Assembly: GCA_001003705.1 (NCBI GenBank)
Contig: LCPQ01000019.1
Span: 3,268-67,267, forward strand
Reading direction: 5' to 3'
DNA from: Parcubacteria group bacterium GW2011_GWA2_48_9
Lineage (GTDB): Bacteria; Patescibacteriota; Patescibacteriia; UBA10025
Length of the DNA: 64,000 bases
The notes under the pieces were generated by a model that was not told where the DNA came from, ran no database searches, and worked only from the letters and a program-made list of their open reading frames with translations. The position numbers were made by a program, and so were the translations under genes. Positions 1 through 39,512 of this stretch are shown here, piece by piece; position 1 is the first letter of the stretch; each line of letters begins with the position of its first letter.

Positions 1-1538
1 CGATAGCTATTTTACCCATGCTCTCGAAGTGGATCATGCGGATGCGCATGCCAAAGCAGGGCGCGCAGGAGATGTCAGCGGAGGATCAGGGGCTGTGGCG
101 CGCGGCGCGGTGGTTCATGTCGGTGAGCCGTAATTTACTCACCAAGAAATGGAAGCAGATTGCGACCGTCGTAGGCGCTCTCGTACTCGTGTCAGCTTCA
201 GTATCCATCATGGGTACGGGCAAAGTGCAGGTCGTACAGTTTTCAAAAGCTGACGATAACCCGTATGTTTCAGTGGACGCGAGGTTCAAGCACGGGCTGA
301 CGTTTGCCGACCGTTCGGCTGTCGGAGAGCAGATCGAACAGCTGCTGATCGAGGAAAAAGGGGTCGCGAAGTTTTTCTACTATCAACAGAGTGCTGACGG
401 CCTGTTCATCTTCGCGGAGTTAAAAGACATTTTAGAGCGCGATGACACGCAAAAGAGCAAAGAGATTGTGACCCGGCTCAAAGCAGGAACGATGGACATC
501 GCCAATATTGACGATGTCATCGTTGGTGAGCTGGGCGTGGGTCCGCCTGAGGAGGACTACCAAATTCAAGTGCAGTTGAACGACAATGATCCGGTGGTAC
601 TCGAAAAAGCCGCTACTGAGGTTGGTAATCATTTACGGTCGCTCGAACATATTACTCGCGTGGATGACGGATTTACCGGCAAGGGCGAATCGGAAGTGCG
701 CGTGGTGCTCGATCGCACAAAGGTACAGCTGGCAGGACTCTCAAGCTTTGAAATCGGCCAGCAATTAAAAGCCGTGATCGGCGAAACAACTGTTACTAAG
801 TATGCGGGCGAAGGCGGCTCCGCTGATGTCATATTGAAAAACGGCGCCCTGCCGGGAAATGTAGACGCGATACGGAGTTTGCCGCTTACCAGCCGCACAG
901 GACAGACGGTTCGCGTGAGCGATGTGGCCACTGTGGAACAGACGACGGCAGTAGGCGCCATCCAGCGCTTTGACGGACTGCGGTTCGTGAGCGTACGGGC
1001 AAGGATTGACGACAGCAAAAACTTAGTTACCGTCCAACAGAAGTTCAACGAGTATCTGACCGATGACAAGCTCGCAAGCTTGGGCATTGATAGCAGGGAT
1101 TCGCGCGGTGAGTTCGATGAGATTGCAAAGTCATTTACCCAGCTCGGGATGGCGTTGGCCGCCGCTATTATCCTTGTCTACATCTTCCTCGTATTACAAT
1201 TCAAGTCATTTACCCAGCCCCTCGTGATGCTAGTCACCGTGCCACTGTCGTTGACGGGCGTATTTCCAGCACTGTTGCTGACCGGATCGGATCTCGGTTT
1301 CCTCGAATTGCTTGGCGTTACTATCCTCGTCGGTATCGTAGTCAGTGTCGGCATCTTCCTGATGGACTATGCGAACCAGCTGGTGAAGGAGCGCGGCTAT
1401 ACGGCGAAAGAAGCGATCACTCAGGCCGTAGGCGTCCGGTTCCGTCCGATTGTCCTCACAAAATTGGTAGTCATCGGCGGGCAAGATACATGGTGCAGGC
1501 AACCACACGGTGAATTAGTCAGCGAACAACACATTTGA
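1..1538 (+). CDS. RND (AcrB/HAE1-like) efflux transporter permease, fragment: enters window mid-gene and ends right after predicted TM11
   Basis: Frame is open from nt 3. Translation shows periplasmic subdomain and TM7-TM11 motifs (GMALAAAIILVYIFLVLQF..., FRPIVLTKLVVIGG aligning to AcrB LRPILMTSLAFILG). No frame continues into a TM12 or C-terminus, so the gene looks 3'-truncated. Confidence 0.6.
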   Translation, partial: IAILPMLSKWIMRMRMPKQGAQEMSAEDQGLWRAARWFMSVSRNLLTKKWKQIATVVGALVLVSASVSIMGTGKVQVVQFSKADDNPYVSVDARFKHGLTFADRSAVGEQIEQLLIEEKGVAKFFYYQQSADGLFIFAELKDILERDDTQKSKEIVTRLKAGTMDIANIDDVIVGELGVGPPEEDYQIQVQLNDNDPVVLEKAATEVGNHLRSLEHITRVDDGFTGKGESEVRVVLDRTKVQLAGLSSFEIGQQLKAVIGETTVTKYAGEGGSADVILKNGALPGNVDAIRSLPLTSRTGQTVRVSDVATVEQTTAVGAIQRFDGLRFVSVRARIDDSKNLVTVQQKFNEYLTDDKLASLGIDSRDSRGEFDEIAKSFTQLGMALAAAIILVYIFLVLQFKSFTQPLVMLVTVPLSLTGVFPALLLTGSDLGFLELLGVTILVGIVVSVGIFLMDYANQLVKERGYTAKEAITQAVGVRFRPIVLTKLVVIGGQDTWCRQPHGELVSEQHI

Positions 1539-1547
1539 GAATTCCTC

Positions 1548-1575
1548 AAAGCCCGGTGTAACAGCCGGGCTTTTT
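1548..1575 (+). terminator. rho-independent terminator (AGCCCGG-loop-CCGGGCT followed by TTTTT)
   Basis: Perfect 7-bp GC-rich stem with T-run immediately after the stop of the RND fragment. Confidence 0.6.
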
Positions 1576-1594
1576 AAAAAAAATGAATGAATAG

Positions 1595-1628
1595 AAAAAC
1601 TCCTGCCGATCGCGAGACCAGCAGGAGT
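1595..1628 (-). terminator. rho-independent terminator for the minus-strand TPM gene (CTCCTGC-loop-GCAGGAG, T-run on minus strand)
   Basis: Hairpin with A5 on the plus side (T5 on minus), just downstream of the stop at 1653. Confidence 0.55.
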
Positions 1629-1652
1629 GTCAAGTACAGAGTGCTGAACGGC

Positions 1653-2921
1653 TCAGAAATCATTGGAGCCACCACCGCCGCCGCTGAATTGGCCACCACC
1701 ACCGAAACTGTCAACCGTGTCGGATGCGGTTTGGTCACTCTGTTGATGGCCTCCATATGACGGATGGTGAGTGGTGTTCGCGTAGTCATGGTGCTCGACG
1801 GCCCGTGAACTGTCGTCCACGATCGCATCGAGGATTGCGAACACGATGATCCAGTCGAGGATTCCCATACCACCACCGCTGCAGGCTTGGGCTCGTATTG
1901 AGCGTGCGCGGGCGTACTCCTGCTGTGCGTGGGCCAGAAGCTGGCTTGCCTCCTCGGACTGTTTGCCTCCTTTCAACTTCTTCTCGAGCCGTCGCAACTT
2001 TTCGGGGAGTTTTTCCATGAGGACAGGGCCTTCCTCGCGGGCTTTTTTGGCGTACGCTTGGTCCGACTCGTACGCGGACTCGGTATTGGATACATACCAT
2101 TCAATGCTGTTCAGCTCGTCACGAGTACTGACCCATTTCACTCCGGAAGAGTCCCTGAGCAAATCCCGTATCGGTTTGAGCCTGTCCTGAAGCTTGCGGA
2201 TACTCCTGCGCGTATTGTCGCTCATCTCAGGATCGGACATCTTGAGTGCCAGCTTGTCCAAGCGCTCTACAACTCCGTCCTTTCGTTTCAGGACTTCATT
2301 GCAGGCGCGGACTCGACGTATTGCGACGATGATGACAATGAGGAGGATGACCGCGCCGATGATGATTAAGAGAATCAAGGTGTCCTGAGTTGTCCAAGGA
2401 TGAGGTGTATGAACAGGCGCTGACTGTGCGGTACGAGCTGCGTGAATGACGTCCATGATTGCGTGGGTTCCTCGGACTACTCCGTTGGTCCAGTCGTTGG
2501 CCTTCAGAAAAGGCCTGATGACGGTCAGACGAATGTACTCGTTCTTGTCGTCGGTTACCACATTCTTGACTCCCGGCGCTGTGCGGATACACATTTTCCG
2601 CTCCGCCAATGCGATGAGGAACACGATGCCATTCAAGCTGTCCTTGTTGCCGACTTTCCACTCGTCGCCGAGGCGGACTGCGAACGTGTCGATATTTGAA
2701 CCGCCAAGGTTAGGCACGGTGACCACAGCGATCTCCACGGTGGTTTCATCCCTGAACCTTACGAGTTCGGCGTTCAGCGAATCCCGCACTTCTTGCGAGA
2801 GCAGTTTGGCAAAATCGCTGACGAAGCCTTCGGGCTGGGGAAAGGTTTGCGCGTGCACGGACGTACACGCTATCAGTGCCATAAGCAGCACTGTGGTTAT
2901 CTGCAGGAATTGCTTCTTCAT
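1653..2921 (-). CDS. TPM-domain (TLP18.3/Psb32/MOLO-1 family, YgcG-like) membrane protein with Gly-rich C-terminal tail
   Basis: Signal peptide, TPM phosphatase-like domain (FVSDFAKLLS...IVFLIALAERKMCIRT), one TM helix, C-terminal GGGGQFSGGGGG tail. Confidence 0.65.
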   Translation of the reverse strand: MKKQFLQITTVLLMALIACTSVHAQTFPQPEGFVSDFAKLLSQEVRDSLNAELVRFRDETTVEIAVVTVPNLGGSNIDTFAVRLGDEWKVGNKDSLNGIVFLIALAERKMCIRTAPGVKNVVTDDKNEYIRLTVIRPFLKANDWTNGVVRGTHAIMDVIHAARTAQSAPVHTPHPWTTQDTLILLIIIGAVILLIVIIVAIRRVRACNEVLKRKDGVVERLDKLALKMSDPEMSDNTRRSIRKLQDRLKPIRDLLRDSSGVKWVSTRDELNSIEWYVSNTESAYESDQAYAKKAREEGPVLMEKLPEKLRRLEKKLKGGKQSEEASQLLAHAQQEYARARSIRAQACSGGGMGILDWIIVFAILDAIVDDSSRAVEHHDYANTTHHPSYGGHQQSDQTASDTVDSFGGGGQFSGGGGGSNDF

Positions 2922-4260: not shown

Positions 4261-4701
4261 ATGGACAATATCATCGATATTGCAGTGATAGTTGGAACCA
4301 TGGGGTTGATTGTGTATTTTTCCCGCGGGTACTTATGGAGTAGCAAACCATATTGGCTAGCCAAGTTTGAAACAATTTCCGAAAAGGCACGGAAGAAGGA
4401 AATCAGGAGCTCGCTGGTCATTGGATTACTTTTTTTGCTCGTTTCTGTTGTCGGATATGTCGATTTTTTTCGTCAGGACGACTTAAGTTTTATCTGGCCG
4501 GCGTTTTTTCTGGCTGCGATAGCTTTTCTCGGAGTGACGTTACTGGTGAATGCCTATCTGTATACCCCCAAAATGATTGATCGCCAGCTTGCGAGCCCGG
4601 AAACGTATACTCGTTGGAGAAAGTACTATTATGTGGGTTTCCTCGTTCTGCTCATGGTACTCATGATTTTGTATGCAGTGCTCTCGCAAGAAAAAAACTA
4701 A
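4261..4701 (+). CDS. hypothetical membrane protein (4 TM)
   Basis: Hydrophobic segments only. Confidence 0.4.
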   Translation: MDNIIDIAVIVGTMGLIVYFSRGYLWSSKPYWLAKFETISEKARKKEIRSSLVIGLLFLLVSVVGYVDFFRQDDLSFIWPAFFLAAIAFLGVTLLVNAYLYTPKMIDRQLASPETYTRWRKYYYVGFLVLLMVLMILYAVLSQEKN

Positions 4702-4762
4702 GTGTTTGGGATATCTGTCTGGAGGGCTTTAACGGTTGGCAAGATCAACAAGATGAGTGTAG

Positions 4763-6283
4763 GTGAGGCACAAATGCCGGGCTTTTTGGTATACTGTCTT
4801 CATGCCCCATAAAAAGCTTTACATCGTCCTTGGCGCTATTGTTTGCATTTTCCTTGCTGCTTTCCTGCCTCTCCTCGTGATGCCGTCGGTGAAAGGCGGG
4901 GTGGATGTTTCCGATAGCAGCGTGGTTTACAGTGTCCTGCAGACTGCCAGGACGCACTTCGACAATCCGTTCCAGCGGGCGCTGGCGTTCCGTTACCAGA
5001 TTATTCACCACGAAGTAGTGGATCAGAAAGACTGGTACCGTGCCGTCGGAAAGACGCTTTTTGGCGTATCGATACATACAGCGGACGTTTTCTCCGACGG
5101 GAGCACTTTTACATTCCCAAGCTTTGAAAACGATATTGTCACGCCGGGTAACGAGATCCTGAATCAAGTTCAGGATGACAACCCCGATGTCGAGTTAACC
5201 GCCGCCGACCGGGCCGGCATGACTTTAAGCGCCGGAAGGTGCGAAGGCACTGACAAGCCGAAGCTGACCCATTTGCCGATGGACATGGAGGATTTTTCCA
5301 TGATTATCCCGTACGGCATGACTGCGGGTGGACACGTTACTCCCATCGACCACCAGTATTTTTCCCCGGCTGATTACAATTCTCCGCTTGACGCGTATGA
5401 AGTATATGCCATGGCTGATTCACGGATCGTTGCTATTGGCCCGCGTCCGAGGATTGACAAGGACGGCAACCCATTCGAGGAATATCGCATGATTTTTTCT
5501 ATGAGCTGTCGTTTATTATATTATTATGATTTGGTCACAAGCCTGGCGCCGGATCTGAAAGCCGCATACGAACGCGACGGCAACAATATTAATTTCCCTG
5601 TGAAAGCCGGACAGCTCATCGGCTACATCGGCGGGCAGACACTGGACTTCGCCGTGTGGGACACCGAGAAGCCGCTTACCGGATACGTCGTTCCAGAACA
5701 CTACGAGAGCGAGGGGTGGAAAATATACACAGCTGACCCGCTGGACTATTATGCCGACGAGTTAAAGGAACAGGCGCTGTCGAAGTATATTCGTACCGCA
5801 GAGCCCCGAAGCGGCAGGATTGATCATGATATTGACGGCAAGCTCATCGGCAACTGGTTCCAGCAAAATACCGACGGTACGACTTCGGGATACAGTGACA
5901 CGGGCGGTGAGTATTGGACCACGCACGTTTCATTTTCACCCGACCATATCGATCCGACGGGGTTTATCATCTCGATAGGGAACTGGCCGGGCGGCGCTAC
6001 CCAGTTCTCAGCAAAAGGGAATACGCCCGATCCGGCCACTGTCGGCGTGGAAACGGGGCTCGTGAAATACGATTTACGGGGAGTGAATTACCGTGATAGC
6101 AACGGCAACTGGGACCGGATGTCGTTGAAGCCGCCTATCACATTCGAGCCCGGCATTGAAGCGTACGGTTGCGCACTGGTCCAGCTCACTGATTCGCGCG
6201 AACTGAAAGTAGAAGTGTTCAAAGGTTCGAATTGCAGCAGTGTGTTTGGATTTACCGACGCGGCGGTGATGTATATGAGGTAG
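4763..6283 (+). CDS. hypothetical exported protein, possibly a degenerate LytM/M23-like domain
   Basis: N-terminal TM/signal anchor. HVTPIDH (HxxxD-like) is present, but the second M23 HxH motif is replaced by LDFAVWD. True start may be the internal Met at 4804. Confidence 0.4.
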   Translation: MRHKCRAFWYTVFMPHKKLYIVLGAIVCIFLAAFLPLLVMPSVKGGVDVSDSSVVYSVLQTARTHFDNPFQRALAFRYQIIHHEVVDQKDWYRAVGKTLFGVSIHTADVFSDGSTFTFPSFENDIVTPGNEILNQVQDDNPDVELTAADRAGMTLSAGRCEGTDKPKLTHLPMDMEDFSMIIPYGMTAGGHVTPIDHQYFSPADYNSPLDAYEVYAMADSRIVAIGPRPRIDKDGNPFEEYRMIFSMSCRLLYYYDLVTSLAPDLKAAYERDGNNINFPVKAGQLIGYIGGQTLDFAVWDTEKPLTGYVVPEHYESEGWKIYTADPLDYYADELKEQALSKYIRTAEPRSGRIDHDIDGKLIGNWFQQNTDGTTSGYSDTGGEYWTTHVSFSPDHIDPTGFIISIGNWPGGATQFSAKGNTPDPATVGVETGLVKYDLRGVNYRDSNGNWDRMSLKPPITFEPGIEAYGCALVQLTDSRELKVEVFKGSNCSSVFGFTDAAVMYMR

Positions 6284-8515: not shown

Positions 8516-9100
8516 TTACTTCTTCATCGGGATGAGCCGGTAATGTACTTCCATCCCGTTGAGTTGGGTGATGTGTTCCAAGTCACGGCCCGCTTTGAGC
8601 GCGTCCCAGACCTCGGGGAGCATTTCGAGCTCATCGAGGTGACCCATGATAGGTCCACGTACAGAGAGTATATAGGCGAGACGCAGGTTTTCGCCCTCTT
8701 CGTTGAGCACCTCGACAGGGTCCAGCGAACGCCAGTTTGGCGGGATGGACCTGCCAAAGAGCGGAGAGTCGTGCCGATACGCGACGTCATCCATGAAGGT
8801 CGACGGATCATAAACGGTAACGGCGATTTCATACTCATAGCCGATCGCGTCGTCGTCCTGGTAGATCCATTCAGCGGGTTGCACCGCGTACAAGGTGAAT
8901 TCAAGGCGAGTCGGCATGGACTGCTTGTACATGAGGAAACGTTGCTGAGTCGTGAATTGTTCGACCAGCTCAGTTTTCGCCTGTTCAGGTTCGTTGCCGC
9001 ACCCGACGACGAAGCATGCGATGGTGACGACAACGATGATGAGTACAAGGGCAGCGATGCTTGTGAGCACGTTGGGCCCATGCGTTTCGATTGCTTTCAA
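8516..9100 (-). CDS. hypothetical lipoprotein / membrane-anchored protein
   Basis: N-terminal TM followed by VVGCGNE (lipobox-like). Confidence 0.45.
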   Translation of the reverse strand: MKAIETHGPNVLTSIAALVLIIVVVTIACFVVGCGNEPEQAKTELVEQFTTQQRFLMYKQSMPTRLEFTLYAVQPAEWIYQDDDAIGYEYEIAVTVYDPSTFMDDVAYRHDSPLFGRSIPPNWRSLDPVEVLNEEGENLRLAYILSVRGPIMGHLDELEMLPEVWDALKAGRDLEHITQLNGMEVHYRLIPMKK

Positions 9101-9254
9101 AGGGCACCTCCAATTTTTGTGATACTGCGTTTACTTTCCCTAGTTTTTGATAATGCATAATATGTATTTTCAGGTATTTTGTCAACCCTAAAGACGTCGA
9201 TGATGAGCATCGGGGCTTGCTTTGTATGTTTTTTTCTGGTATCCTCTGTGCAAT

Positions 9255-11048
9255 ATGGAGATTAGAAACATTGCCATAATCGCCCATGTGGACCATGGGA
9301 AGACGACTTTGACTGACGCTATCATGCGGCAGACGGGCATGGTAACCGAGGAAGGCGCCACGATGGATTCGAACACGCTCGAGAAGGAGCGCGGCATTAC
9401 TATTTATGCGAAAAACGCGTCTGTCTTTTATCGCGACACGAAAATAAATATCGTCGACACTCCAGGGCACGCTGATTTTGGCTCGGAAGTTGAACGTGTC
9501 CTCCGTTCAATTGATAGTGTGGTGTTAGTCGTCGATGCGCAAGAAGGCCCGATGCCCCAGACGCGGTTTGTTTTAAAAAAATCACTTGAACTGGGCTTAA
9601 AACCCATTGTAGTATTGAACAAAATTGACAAGCCGGCGGCTGATCCTGATCTCGCGCAAGAAGAAGTGTATGAACTGTTCCTTGACCTTGGCGCAAACGA
9701 TGAACAGCTCGATTTCACGACCGTGTATGCCGTAGGCAGGGAGGGTAAGGCAATGCTGAACCTCACTGACGAAGCTATCGACTTGTCGCCTCTGCTCGAT
9801 ACTATTTTACTTAAAGTGCATCCGGCGCCCGCTGATACAGCAGCGCCATTCCGTTTCCAGCCATTTAATCTGGGCTATGATAACTATCTCGGCCGGCTTG
9901 CTATCGGAAGGATCTATGAAGGAAAGATACGGGCTGGTGAACAGCTTGTGCAAAAGAAAAATGACGGATCGCATGAAAGCGCGCGCGTTACGAAACTATT
10001 TTCATTCAAAGGGCTCCTGCGCGAAGAAGTGGTAGAAGCCGTCGCTGGTGACATAGTCATGATCGCCGGATTTCCCGGTATCGATATCGGAGAAACCCTG
10101 TGCGAGCGCGAGGACCAGCAGGCGTTGCCGGCAATCACCGTTGACGAGCCAACGATTTCACTGAATTTCTTGATCAATGATTCTCCGTTCTCAGGTAAAG
10201 ACGGCAAGTATGTCACGACGACCCAGCTGCGCGACAGGCTGAAAAAAGAGCTCGAGGTCAATGTAGGTTTGAATATTGATTTTCTTCCTGACGCGAACAA
10301 AGTCTACGGCCGCGGCGAGCTTCACGTAGCCATTTTGATTGAAAACATGCGCCGTGAAGGATATGAGGTGCAGGTCTCGCAGCCGCAGGTGATCATCAAG
10401 GAACGGGACGGAGTAAAGATGGAACCGTATGAGGAAGCTACTGTCGACGTGCCTGAGGCGTATTCGGGAATCGTCATAGAGAAGATGGGCAAAAGGAAAG
10501 GTATTATGACGACGATGGAAAATACGAGGGGACAGGTACGCATGATTTTCGAAATTCCGACTCGCGGATTGCTCGGTTACCGCGGCGAGTTTATCATCGA
10601 TACAAAAGGCGAAGGCATTCTGTGTTCGCGGGTTATCGGATTCCGACCGCACGCCGGCGGAATTCGTAAGCGCGACACCGGTTCGATGATTTCCATGGCA
10701 ACGGGTAAAGCACTGGGATTTTCGTTGGCAAATCTCCAAGAGCGCGGCATGTTATTTATCGGGCCCGGCACTGAAGTTTATGAAGGCATGGTGATAGGCA
10801 ACGCGTCGAAAGGCTTCGATATGCCGGTTAACCCCGTAAAGGGCAAGCGGCTGACCAATATGCGGGAGTCGGGAACGGACGAAGGTATCCATCTAGTAAC
10901 GCCGGTCCTCTTAACGATCGAGAGCGGACTCGAAATCATGGCGGAGGATGAATATCTCGAGGTGACGCCGAAGAGTGTCCGGCTGCGAAAGAAATATCTC
11001 ACCGAGGTAGACAGAAAACGCTCAGAGAAAGCTATACCGAAGGAGTAG
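9255..11048 (+). CDS. typA: translational GTPase TypA/BipA
   Basis: G1-G4 motifs (AHVDHGKTT, DTPGH, NKID) and full-length similarity to BipA. Start moved to MEIRNIAII. Confidence 0.9.
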   Translation: MEIRNIAIIAHVDHGKTTLTDAIMRQTGMVTEEGATMDSNTLEKERGITIYAKNASVFYRDTKINIVDTPGHADFGSEVERVLRSIDSVVLVVDAQEGPMPQTRFVLKKSLELGLKPIVVLNKIDKPAADPDLAQEEVYELFLDLGANDEQLDFTTVYAVGREGKAMLNLTDEAIDLSPLLDTILLKVHPAPADTAAPFRFQPFNLGYDNYLGRLAIGRIYEGKIRAGEQLVQKKNDGSHESARVTKLFSFKGLLREEVVEAVAGDIVMIAGFPGIDIGETLCEREDQQALPAITVDEPTISLNFLINDSPFSGKDGKYVTTTQLRDRLKKELEVNVGLNIDFLPDANKVYGRGELHVAILIENMRREGYEVQVSQPQVIIKERDGVKMEPYEEATVDVPEAYSGIVIEKMGKRKGIMTTMENTRGQVRMIFEIPTRGLLGYRGEFIIDTKGEGILCSRVIGFRPHAGGIRKRDTGSMISMATGKALGFSLANLQERGMLFIGPGTEVYEGMVIGNASKGFDMPVNPVKGKRLTNMRESGTDEGIHLVTPVLLTIESGLEIMAEDEYLEVTPKSVRLRKKYLTEVDRKRSEKAIPKE

Positions 11049-36799: not shown

Positions 36800-37804
36800 A
36801 TGAAGGTTATTCTCGCTAAACCAAGAGGTTTTTGCGCCGGCGTTGATCGGGCTATCGATGTCGTTGAATTAGCGCTGCAGGTCTATGGAAAGCCGGTCTA
36901 CGTAAAACACGCCATCGTTCATAATGACCACGTTGTTCGGGATCTCGAACAGAAGGGCACCATCTTTATTGAATCAGTCGATGAGATTCCGGAGGGCGCG
37001 CACGCCGTCTTTAGCGCGCACGGCAGTCCGCCCTCGGATTACGAAAAGGCCAAGGCGCGCAAATTAAACCTCATAGATGCAACGTGCCCGTTGGTGACAA
37101 AAGTTCATCTCGAGGCGAAACGGTTCGGGAAAGAGGGTTACATGATTATTTTGGTCGGGCACAAGGGGCATGTCGAACTCCGCGGTACGAGCGGCGAGGC
37201 CCCAGACCATACCATGATTGTCGAAACGGTTGAAGATGTTGATGCATTGAAGTTGCCTGTGCAGGAAAAAATTGCTGTCCTGACGCAGACAACGTTGTCC
37301 GTGGATGATACGAAGACAGTCCTCGACGTAATCAGGAAGAAATACCCCGGGGCGCTGTTTCCTCCTTCATCCGACATTTGTTACGCGACGACAAACCGCC
37401 AGCGCGCTGTGAAAGAACTTGCCAAACACGTACAGTTAGTTTTGGTTGTTGGTTCACACGCGAGCTCCAATACGAACCGTCTTGTTGAAGTGGCGAAGAA
37501 CCAAGGCGTGCCCGCTTACCGGATTAATTCCGCGAATGACATTGAAACATCTTGGCTGAAGGGTGTTGAGGTAGTGGGCCTGACGTCGGGCGCGTCGGCA
37601 CCCGAAGAGCTGGTCCAATCGGTAATCGAATTTCTCCGCAAGCACGGCGCTGACGAAGTCGAAGAACTTGAAGTACTCCAGGAGCGAGTCTGGTTTAACC
37701 TGCCCATGGAGATACGCGAGGCGGCAAAAGCGCGCGGTATCGATGCTTCATTAATTCAAAAACACCATATAGCACGTGGCGTGAAGATGTCTGTAAAGGA
37801 ATAG
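36800..37804 (+). CDS. ispH: 4-hydroxy-3-methylbut-2-enyl diphosphate reductase (IspH/LytB)
   Basis: MKVILAKPRGFCAGVDRAI...HNDHVV...SAHGSP...ATCPLVTKVH...TQTTLS...SSNTNRL: full-length IspH motifs including three Cys ligands. Start moved to MKVIL. Confidence 0.9.
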   Translation: MKVILAKPRGFCAGVDRAIDVVELALQVYGKPVYVKHAIVHNDHVVRDLEQKGTIFIESVDEIPEGAHAVFSAHGSPPSDYEKAKARKLNLIDATCPLVTKVHLEAKRFGKEGYMIILVGHKGHVELRGTSGEAPDHTMIVETVEDVDALKLPVQEKIAVLTQTTLSVDDTKTVLDVIRKKYPGALFPPSSDICYATTNRQRAVKELAKHVQLVLVVGSHASSNTNRLVEVAKNQGVPAYRINSANDIETSWLKGVEVVGLTSGASAPEELVQSVIEFLRKHGADEVEELEVLQERVWFNLPMEIREAAKARGIDASLIQKHHIARGVKMSVKE

Positions 37805-37878
37805 AGCAAGCCAGTATGTTCGCAAGCCGGCAAGCCCGTATTTTTATTCTACGGGCCGTGATTTCTGTCTATTCAAGG

Positions 37879-38517
37879 CTACTCGGCTGGTCCGTATGTT
37901 GCTTCCTCGTCAAGTTCAGTGACGGCTATATAGCGTTTCAGCGCCGTTCCGATTGGGTATGAAGTTTGCAACGTCAGCATGGTCCGTTCGTTGTTGTATT
38001 GATCGAGGACGGAAGTATCCTTCGGGCCCACTACTTTCGTTTCAATCACTTTATAGATAAAAAGTTCGCCTTTATCGTTGGTAATGCGTACTTCTGTTTC
38101 GAGGGGAATGTCCACGAGAGGGGCGAAAACTTTTTTGTAGTCCCCCGGCTTCCAGAAATAGTCCGACGAATGGCCAAAGATGTACGGATTGCCCGGTTCA
38201 CCCGGATTCGGCGTTTCGGGATAATGGACGACACCTCGGGACAGCGCTTCCTGGAATACAGGTTCACTGACTTCATCCACATAGATCACTGGAGCCTCTA
38301 TCTCACGGTCCTGAATGCTAATGTGGTTAGGTTCACCCGTTCCGAGAGGGATTCTGGGTGTTGGGAGTTGCCCGTTAACATTCAGTGAAAGATTCACATT
38401 TGACACTTGAAGTACTTCTGTGGATCCCCGCCATAGCACAAATATGACAGTACCCCCGATGGCGAGGAGAAAAAGGATTCCCAGTGTGATTAGTCGTACC
38501 TGTTTCGTTTTCTTCAT
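37879..38517 (-). CDS. sortase-family protein with Ser in place of the catalytic Cys (TLQTS instead of TLxTC)
   Basis: N-terminal TM anchor, sortase beta-barrel pattern (GVVHYPETPNPGEPGNPYIFGHSS...GD...ELFIYKVIETKVVGP...MLTLQTSYP...LKRYIAV). His and Arg are conserved. The Cys position reads TCA (Ser) on the plus strand (TGA at 37948-37950). Confidence 0.6.
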   Translation of the reverse strand: MKKTKQVRLITLGILFLLAIGGTVIFVLWRGSTEVLQVSNVNLSLNVNGQLPTPRIPLGTGEPNHISIQDREIEAPVIYVDEVSEPVFQEALSRGVVHYPETPNPGEPGNPYIFGHSSDYFWKPGDYKKVFAPLVDIPLETEVRITNDKGELFIYKVIETKVVGPKDTSVLDQYNNERTMLTLQTSYPIGTALKRYIAVTELDEEATYGPAE

Positions 38518-38852
38518 ATCAAAATGATTGTATCAGGAGGTCGCCCACTCATCAAGAGGTTTCATGACCGCGGACTTTAGTATATACTTTTACTAGGCGC
38601 CAATTTTCCCCGTTGACCTCTTGAGGCGTCATTTGCTCATTCGTGGCGGTTCATCCTGTCACACAGGAGGAACACATGAAAAGTCGATGTTACACAAACC
38701 AGCGCAGTCGGAGTCCCGAGATGGTGGACTATCCGAATCCGAGGGTTGTGAACACCGAGCCGTGTCGCGGTTCAACTTGGTCTATGGTGGCCAACGAATC
38801 CGCGACGAAGATGTGGGTCGGCGACGGCGGTTAGCAAGCTGCTACTACCGAG

Positions 38853-39512
38853 TTGCCGGTACGACCTGGGGGTGGATCCAATCCGCCCCCGTTTTCTTTT
38901 ATTGAAACCGCATCGCAGGCACAGAGCGTTGAGGTTGTCGCGGCAAAAGGACACGACCCGTTTTGCATTCTCATTTCGACGATGTTGAGTCTGCGCACGA
39001 AGGATGCAACGACGGCTGCGGCGTCGAAAAGGTTGTTTCGCGTTGCGGACACGCCTCGCAAGATTGTCGCCCTTTCCCATTCACGCATTGAAAAACTGAT
39101 TTACCCGGTGGGGTTTTACCATACGAAAGCGCGTAGTATGAAAAAAACCGCCCAGGTATTGCTCGAGAAGTATAGGGGAAAGGTACCAGACACCATAGAG
39201 AAGCTCGTCGAATTGCCGGGTGTTGGCCGCAAGACGGCAAACTTGGTGGTGAGCTTGGGTTTCGGCAAAGACGGCATATGCGTAGATACGCATGTTCACC
39301 GTATTTCAAACCGCTTGGGATACGTACGAACCAAAACCCCGCATGAAACTGAATTTGCCCTACGGAAGAAACTTCCTAGAAAGTATTGGCAGGACATAAA
39401 TGTGTTATTGGTCACCTGGGGCCAGAACGTTTGTGCACCGATTTCACCCCGCTGTTCTGTTTGTGCGATCAGACCGTGGTGTAAGAGGGTAGGGGTGGGG
39501 AAGTCGAGATAA
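38853..39512 (+). CDS. nth: endonuclease III (Nth), HhH-GPD with 4Fe-4S cluster; N-terminal boundary uncertain
   Basis: PFCILISTMLSLRTKD, HhH LVELPGVGRKTANLVVS, catalytic D in GICVDTHVHRISNRLG, C-x6-C-x2-C-x5-C (CAPISPRCSVCAIRPWC). The ORF-track start is a TTG that reads through a terminator-like hairpin. Confidence 0.75.
   Translation: MPVRPGGGSNPPPFSFIETASQAQSVEVVAAKGHDPFCILISTMLSLRTKDATTAAASKRLFRVADTPRKIVALSHSRIEKLIYPVGFYHTKARSMKKTAQVLLEKYRGKVPDTIEKLVELPGVGRKTANLVVSLGFGKDGICVDTHVHRISNRLGYVRTKTPHETEFALRKKLPRKYWQDINVLLVTWGQNVCAPISPRCSVCAIRPWCKRVGVGKSR
38869..38900 (+). terminator. terminator-like hairpin (GGGGGTGGAT-cca-ATCCGCCCCC) followed by TTTTCTTTT
   Basis: 10-bp stem with one G:U pair plus a T-tract. 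It lies inside the N-terminal extension of the predicted nth ORF. Confidence 0.45.

Follow-up and report, generated by a model that had tools for sequence, protein, structure and literature searches.

Serine in the position of the catalytic cysteine: a candidate serine-nucleophile sortase for LPRTG-type proteins in Patescibacteria

The 64,000-nucleotide stretch of DNA analyzed here (Parcubacteria group bacterium GW2011_GWA2_48_9, contig LCPQ01000019.1, positions 3,268 to 67,267; referred to as the window) encodes a protein that is, by homology and predicted fold, a member of the sortase superfamily, and in which a serine (Ser186) occupies the position of the catalytic cysteine. On the basis of sequence comparisons, we assign a probability of roughly 0.58 to the reading that this protein is an active sortase with a serine nucleophile, acting on proteins with LPRTG-type sorting signals. 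A sequence-only reading of the same DNA had described a sortase homologue with serine at the catalytic cysteine position and had left its function open between a pseudo-sortase, a sorting-signal binder and a serine-based transpeptidase. The description is borne out by the alignments and the structure model given below. Of the three functions, the last is now favored, because serine, histidine and arginine are invariant and distant members of the clade are paired or fused with LPRTG proteins.

The placement in the sortase superfamily is based on profile, alignment and fold. The Pfam Sortase model (PF04203) matches residues 67–202 of the window protein with an E-value of 1.2e-18 and a score of 67.5 bits (cut-off 26.6), covering profile positions 2–124 of 125. 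In a phmmer search against the PDB, LTLQTS of the window protein lies opposite LTLVTC of Streptococcus agalactiae SrtA (3rcc). The alignment of the family profile with Staphylococcus aureus SrtA (SaSrtA) by hhalign, for which the SaSrtA sequence was entered by hand, pairs IFGHSS with IAGHT, LTLQTS with LTLITC and LKR with EKR; His116, Ser186 and Arg195 fall on His120, Cys184 and Arg197 of SaSrtA. The motifs on which the sequence-only reading was built (IFGHSS, TLQTS and LKRYIAV) are all present in the open reading frame (ORF). The sortase layout that it had proposed, an N-terminal transmembrane anchor followed by a beta-barrel core, reappears in the AlphaFold2 (AF2) model, which was calculated with 120 homologues and has a mean predicted local distance difference test (pLDDT) score of 90.1. 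When this model was compared with the PDB using Foldseek, all 50 matches listed were sortases (E-values down to 4e-10, probability 1.00), with 4d70, 3rcc, 5hu4 and 7s4o among the top matches, which assigns the protein to the eight-stranded beta-barrel fold of sortases. The N-terminal helix (residues 5–31) follows a basic N-terminus, and according to the positive-inside rule the catalytic domain would be located outside the membrane.

The protein departs from the definition of sortases as cysteine transpeptidases with a TLxTC motif in its nucleophile. Ser186 stands in the column of the cysteine, and the ORF does not contain any Cys codon; the earlier statement that no cysteine follows residue 35 can be extended to the whole protein. 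The assignment to one of the defined sortase classes A–F was rejected, since every NCBIfam class model scores far under its cut-off (class D, 44.4 versus 165 bits; SrtD, 41.9 versus 140; class E, 37.4 versus 160; class C, 24.8 versus 160; class F, 23.5 versus 166). The generic model TIGR01076 reached 34.5 bits with a cut-off of 39.35.

The serine could also stem from faulty sequencing or assembly, or from a mutation that recently inactivated the gene in a single genome; the a priori rarity of this residue at the position is the sole argument for such an origin. The TCA codon of Ser186 is two substitutions away from TGT and TGC, as the sequence-only reading had noted when it called a base-call error improbable. 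The identical protein is encoded on 23 contigs from several independent metagenome assemblies, which excludes a base-call or assembly artefact; one of the identical copies (100%) is the protein A2898_00560 of Candidatus Kerfeldbacteria (GenBank GCA_001818285.1). The ORF is intact and strongly conserved, and hundreds of homologues carry serine at this position, specified by all six serine codons. An error or a dying gene is refuted by these observations, and its probability is practically negligible.

The serine proved to be a trait of a large clade. The best 120 homologues in a collection of 5.8 billion proteins (44–100% identity), nearly all of them labelled Patescibacteria or Candidate Phyla Radiation (CPR), have serine in this column without exception (120/120), and their histidine and arginine are invariant. 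At E ≤ 1e-30, a profile search among 1.84 billion cluster representatives (50% identity) yielded 695 proteins. The serine type, with the motif TLQTSYP[ILV]GT, accounts for about 115 of the top 150 representatives, and the first cysteine-type sortases, with TL[M/I]TC[W/T/Y]PxGT, appear at approximately 174 bits and below; GHSS is common to both. In the resulting alignment, the nucleophile column contains serine in 233 and cysteine in 31 sequences. The survey of homologues that had been suggested before returned serine in all 233 aligned members of the clade. The histidine is invariant (266/266), and so is the arginine except in three truncated sequences (263/266), at a mean column identity of 36%. 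When one genome of each GTDB species was scanned, at least 463 loci encoding relatives were detected, which belong to Kerfeld-, Doudna-, Uhr-, Yanofsky- and Veblenbacteria, Kazan and unnamed Patescibacteria.

In 81 genes of the clade, the serine is encoded by TCT (22), TCC (21), TCA (18), TCG (18), AGT (1) and AGC (1). All six codons are present, the four TCN codons at nearly the same frequency, which shows an old selection for serine at the amino acid level: the synonymous sites of the codon have reached saturation, whereas the amino acid does not vary. A neighbor-joining tree of 264 catalytic domains contains a single edge that parts 232 serine-type from 31 cysteine-type sequences. The latter share GHSS, xPxGT and the arginine with the serine clade and originate from Saccharimonadales and Berkelbacteria, which are patescibacterial as well. 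Because the wider sortase family is cysteine-based and the cysteine-type sisters are patescibacterial, one derived switch from cysteine to serine inside a patescibacterial sortase lineage is the simplest history. As judged from the alignment, serine, histidine and arginine are under clade-wide purifying selection. Relaxed constraint on the catalytic residues, the mark of a pseudoenzyme, was not found; the three residues are invariant in 233 diverged sequences.

The exchange of the nucleophile is accompanied by further changes in its surroundings, as revealed by a column-by-column comparison of the 233 serine-type with the 31 cysteine-type sequences. Two positions before the nucleophile (position 184), the serine clade has Gln in 232 of 233 sequences, in contrast to Met, Ile, Val or Phe in the cysteine-type sisters. 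Position 112, four residues before the histidine, is Tyr or Phe (mostly Tyr) in the serine clade and Val or Phe in the sisters, and position 192 is Ala in the former and Asn, Ser, Asp or Thr in the latter. Position 119, directly after GHSS, is Asp in 97% of the serine-type but in 29% of the cysteine-type sequences. All four clade-specific residues adjoin catalytic residues in the sequence. In published structures of SrtA with substrate, Ile182 of SaSrtA, the equivalent of position 184, lines the groove for the sorting signal on the face that carries the nucleophile. An alternative thiol nucleophile within the domain was considered and discarded, because 182 of the 233 serine-type catalytic domains, including that of the window protein, are free of cysteine and the cysteines of the remaining ones are scattered and not conserved. 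In its sequence pattern, the set of co-substitutions looks like a retuning of the active site and not like its loss.

The gene neighborhoods connect the clade to a defined type of substrate. Among the more distant loci (L015–L080), 61 had enough upstream sequence to be evaluated, and 49 of these have a co-directional gene directly upstream whose product ends in LPxTG, a hydrophobic stretch and a basic tail. This gene is separated from the sortase gene by a median of 52 nt, and its ORF has a median length of about 800 amino acids. In 50 aligned adjacent signals, the variable residue of LPxTG is Arg in 47, Lys in two and Val in one, and the extended consensus reads P-x-V-L-G-A-x-[T/D]-E-LPRTG. 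The domains of the LPRTG proteins include the prealbumin-like SpaA_2 and SdrD_B, which are typical of adhesins and pilins of Gram-positive bacteria. In-frame fusions of substrate and sortase are found in three cluster representatives (P0130, P0139 and P0151) and at locus L044 (ORF 8876..10429), where the fusion was checked at the DNA level. Their order is surface protein, LPRTG, transmembrane segment, RRLKK, transmembrane segment of the sortase and serine-type sortase domain, and they may represent self-processing polyproteins. At locus L024 (8672..11980), two substrate–sortase pairs follow each other in tandem, and at L042 (9827..11075) two serine-type sortase genes lie side by side, an arrangement reminiscent of the pilus islands of Gram-positive bacteria. 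No cysteine-type sortase was detected in approximately 1.5 Mb of DNA around the serine-type sortases or in the 64-kb window.

Secreted proteins that resemble TasA/camelysin and have the motif A[FY]EAHV[VI]NVTA in their signal peptides are also encoded at some related loci (L051 438..2544; L056 689..1417 and 4430..4885; L081 1..278 and 838..1986). L056 additionally contains an ORF for a SipW-like signal peptidase, and a weak Peptidase_S24 match is located nearby in L081. The link of the sortase to TasA/SipW-like genes was inconsistent across loci and is treated as incidental.

In the mechanism proposed here, the window protein would be an extracytoplasmic enzyme held by its membrane anchor, which recognizes C-terminal signals of the LPRTG type followed by a hydrophobic segment and a basic tail. 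The sorting-signal peptide proposed for cleavage and ligation is VLGATDELPRTGLP, and PQVLGATDELPRTGLPV is the signal stretch proposed as substrate. Cleavage after the Thr would proceed via an acyl-ester intermediate on Ser186, with His116 as general base and acid and Arg195 holding the substrate and the oxyanion. An amine of the cell envelope would then resolve the acyl-ester, which would make the enzyme a transpeptidase. Gln184, Tyr112, Ala192 and the near-fixed Asp119 may be the second-shell changes that render serine workable, by orienting the base or forming a Ser-His-Asp triad, of which Asp119 is a candidate third member, and by shaping the oxyanion hole. The extension of this reading to the entire patescibacterial clade is favored as well, with slightly less confidence: its members probably use a serine acyl-enzyme nucleophile, enabled by second-shell changes, to anchor or polymerize LPRTG proteins of the SpaA/SdrD type, which would make them the first serine sortases, with self-processing fusions among them. 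Within the clade, most members are probably dedicated to the adjacent surface protein. The subclade of the window protein, in which a solitary sortase gene is surrounded by housekeeping genes (IspH, Nth, CorA and RuvB), probably comprises general, housekeeping-type enzymes that would act on unlinked LPRTG substrates.

Two points weigh against an active serine sortase. The first is the absence of a visible partner close to the window gene. As the sequence-only reading had already stated, the 64-kb window does not contain an LPXTG-type substrate. An LPXTG-type signal was not found in approximately 18 kb of additional flanking sequence of the same genome either, nor was an LPXTG-type ORF within ±10 kb of the 14 closest relatives (L001–L014). 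In all of this sequence, the looser pattern [LIVM][PA]x[TSA][GASN] matched the CorA C-terminus and non-coding frames only. Substrates with a tripartite sorting signal were seen elsewhere in the clade, at 49 of the 61 distant loci and in the fusions, and not in the window or within about 10 kb of the close relatives. The second point is the C184S variant of SaSrtA, the activity of which "decreased dramatically" (PMC4827206, citing earlier work). Because of this loss, serine alone does not suffice in the canonical active site, which is why the co-substitutions of the serine clade matter.

The near-inactivity of C184S is also an argument for a catalytically dead pseudo-sortase, which would bind LPRTG signals and function in chaperoning, in retention or positioning, or in regulation, with a cysteine sortase encoded elsewhere doing the chemistry. 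The histidine and the arginine of canonical sortases participate in substrate binding, too, and their conservation alone is no proof of catalysis; moreover, cysteine-type sister sortases exist in the same superphylum. However, the nucleophile position is never Ala, Gly, Thr or Cys in 233 diverged sequences that use six codons for its serine, which is beyond the usual demand of binding, and the coordinated clade-specific changes by the catalytic residues resemble retuning instead of decay. The sole type of sortase gene linked to LPRTG substrates is the serine type, including the tandem pairs and the fusions, and it is hard to see a purpose in fusing an inactive binding protein to the ligand it binds. 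Exchanges between cysteine and serine nucleophiles occur in other protease clans. We regard a pseudo-sortase as unlikely and prefer an active serine enzyme.

An active serine enzyme might still be a hydrolase and not a transpeptidase. As a sheddase or maturation protease, it would free LPRTG proteins from their membrane anchor, and all evidence for catalysis counts equally for this function. From general chemistry, aminolysis of an oxy-ester is inherently less favorable than that of a thioester. Against hydrolysis, the substrates retain the full tripartite signal that characterizes wall-anchored proteins, and SpaA/SdrD domains such as theirs typically occur in anchored adhesins and pilins. Penicillin-binding proteins are serine acyl-enzymes that perform cell-wall transpeptidation, and they do so efficiently. 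We consider a hydrolase slightly less likely than a pseudo-sortase and retain the transpeptidase as the preferred reading.

The positions of the gene, its domains and the residues discussed above are compiled in Table 1. In the consensus scan, promoter-like sites are no more numerous in this region than expected by chance, and the site listed upstream of the sortase gene is to be taken as positional evidence only. No Shine–Dalgarno sequence is visible before the ATG. The short distance between the promoter-like site and the start codon, together with this lack, suggests transcription of the sortase gene from a promoter of its own into a leaderless or near-leaderless mRNA.

Table 1. Features of the serine-type sortase gene in the window (window coordinates)
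Feature	Position	Strand	Remarks
Serine-type sortase gene	37879..38517	-	212 amino acids, ATG start, stop codon 37879..37881; ORF list and sequence
N-terminal signal-anchor helix, residues 5–31	38425..38505	-	AF2/DSSP, high pLDDT; preceded by basic MKKTKQVR
Sortase beta-barrel catalytic domain, residues 67–202	37912..38319	-	Extent of Pfam match; AF2 pLDDT >90 over the domain
His116 codon CAT, FGHSSD motif (IFGHSS)	38170..38172	-	Equivalent to SaSrtA His120 by hhalign; 266/266 aligned sequences
Ser186 codon TCA, TLQTS	37960..37962	-	Column of the catalytic Cys (SaSrtA Cys184); phmmer and hhalign
Arg195 codon CGC, LKRYI (LKRYIAV)	37933..37935	-	Equivalent to SaSrtA Arg197 by hhalign
Gln184 codon	37966..37968	-	Specific to the serine clade; position −2 from the nucleophile; corresponds to SaSrtA Ile182
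Asp119 codon (GHSSD)	38161..38163	-	Near-fixed in the serine clade; column comparison
Tyr112 codon	38182..38184	-	Specific to the serine clade; strand beta4, four residues before His
Promoter-like site TTGATG-17-TACAAT with TG extension	38527..38555	-	Consensus scan; ends 9 nt before the sortase ATG

Downstream, the sortase gene (end at 37879) and the convergent ispH gene (end at 37804) are separated by a region with the inverted repeat GCCCGTA-N9-TACGGGC (37836..37858), which is likely a terminator shared by both genes. It was read directly from the sequence because its loop exceeds the 8-nt limit of the terminator scan.

On the other side, the spacer between the sortase gene and nth (38600..38900, plus strand) folds more stably than shuffled sequences (z = −2.9) and ends in a strong terminator hairpin with a T-run (38867..38891). 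It holds an ORF of 52 amino acids (ATG at 38676) behind an AGGAGG Shine–Dalgarno site. No Rfam match was obtained for the spacer, and 10 bp within it are deleted in one related assembly (L086). The spacer may harbor a small gene that escaped annotation, or a non-coding RNA. At about 38926/38927, the window lacks 115 bp that are found in GCA_001818285.1 (MHKE01000016.1; compare L084 9533..9650), and the start of this stretch is also carried by two other metagenome assemblies. The stretch comprises the upstream region and the first approximately 24 codons (MPIPRMEKIIPVLKREVKKFHTPI) of the endonuclease III gene (nth). Because the start of the gene is missing with it, nth of the window is either truncated at its 5′ end or restarts at a TTG (38853). 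Approximately 8.5 kb past the right end of the window, a gene for a giant DUF2341 protein of 4553 amino acids and an LCP-family gene (LytR_cpsA_psr) were observed (L090 1..408 and 708..2186); the giant protein may be a substrate of the sortase.

The mechanism of sortases (a thiolate–imidazolium pair and a thioester) is founded on their catalytic thiol, as are sortase inhibitors and the application of sortases in protein engineering (sortagging). If the proposed reading is true, the sortase fold can run ester chemistry, and the clade would be a natural experiment on the second-shell residues needed to convert a cysteine into a serine enzyme. It might also yield ligases that are insensitive to oxidation and thiol reagents. 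Furthermore, the serine-type sortases bear on the display of adhesins by the little-understood envelopes of Patescibacteria, which live as episymbionts.

In the recent literature, sortases are uniformly defined as cysteine enzymes and divided into six classes. A survey of CPR protein families found a sortase family in more than half of the CPR genomes and reported nothing further on it (PMC6744442). The literature searched, which was not exhaustive, contained no description of natural serine sortases or the TLQTS motif, nor of CPR bacteria with LPRTG signals, and the clade is provisionally regarded as undescribed. Its sequences are already present in databases, where they are labelled simply "sortase".

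By profile score and tree, the nearest relatives of the serine clade are the patescibacterial cysteine sortases with the pattern GHSS ... TL[I/M]TC[W/T/Y]PxGT ... R (e.g., P0346 of Berkelbacteria and P0350 of Saccharibacteria), which NCBI names class D or class E sortases. Both groups have the length, the N-terminal anchor, GHSS, PxGT, the catalytic histidine and arginine and the superphylum in common. They differ in the cysteine nucleophile of the relatives, in their Met or Ile instead of Gln at position −2, in the variable residue after GHSS and in Val or Phe in place of Tyr112. Four loci of the cysteine-type sisters were inspected. The sortase genes lie beside housekeeping and cell-wall genes (ribosomal L10/L12, MurA, MreB, Wzy and WecG), in one case with a second cysteine sortase, and no LPXTG gene is adjacent at any of the four.

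The canonical sortases of classes A–F (MEROPS C60, PF04203; e.g., S. aureus SrtA, Clostridium perfringens SrtD (4d70) and S. agalactiae SrtA (3rcc)) share the fold, the anchor and equivalent histidine, nucleophile and arginine positions with the window protein, and their cognate signal is of the LPXTG type, as in the relatives of the window protein. All of them are cysteine transpeptidases, whereas the window protein has serine. The C184S laboratory mutant of SaSrtA, which also serves as a "cys-less" background (PMC5578623), contains the same replacement as the natural serine clade. Unlike this mutant, the clade has extra fixed changes around the active site and is under strong purifying selection.

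Rhombosortase (with GlyGly-CTERM), exosortase and archaeosortase are likewise enzymes that process C-terminal signals and are paired with their substrates, and the nucleophile of rhombosortase is reported to be a serine (PMC3237569). In contrast to the window sortase, these enzymes are polytopic intramembrane proteins of an unrelated fold that act on other signals. Cell-wall transpeptidation provides a further parallel, since it runs via a serine ester in penicillin-binding proteins or via a cysteine thioester in L,D-transpeptidases as the acyl-enzyme. The folds of the serine DD-transpeptidases and the cysteine L,D-transpeptidases are unrelated, whereas the serine-type and cysteine-type sortases are homologues within one fold.
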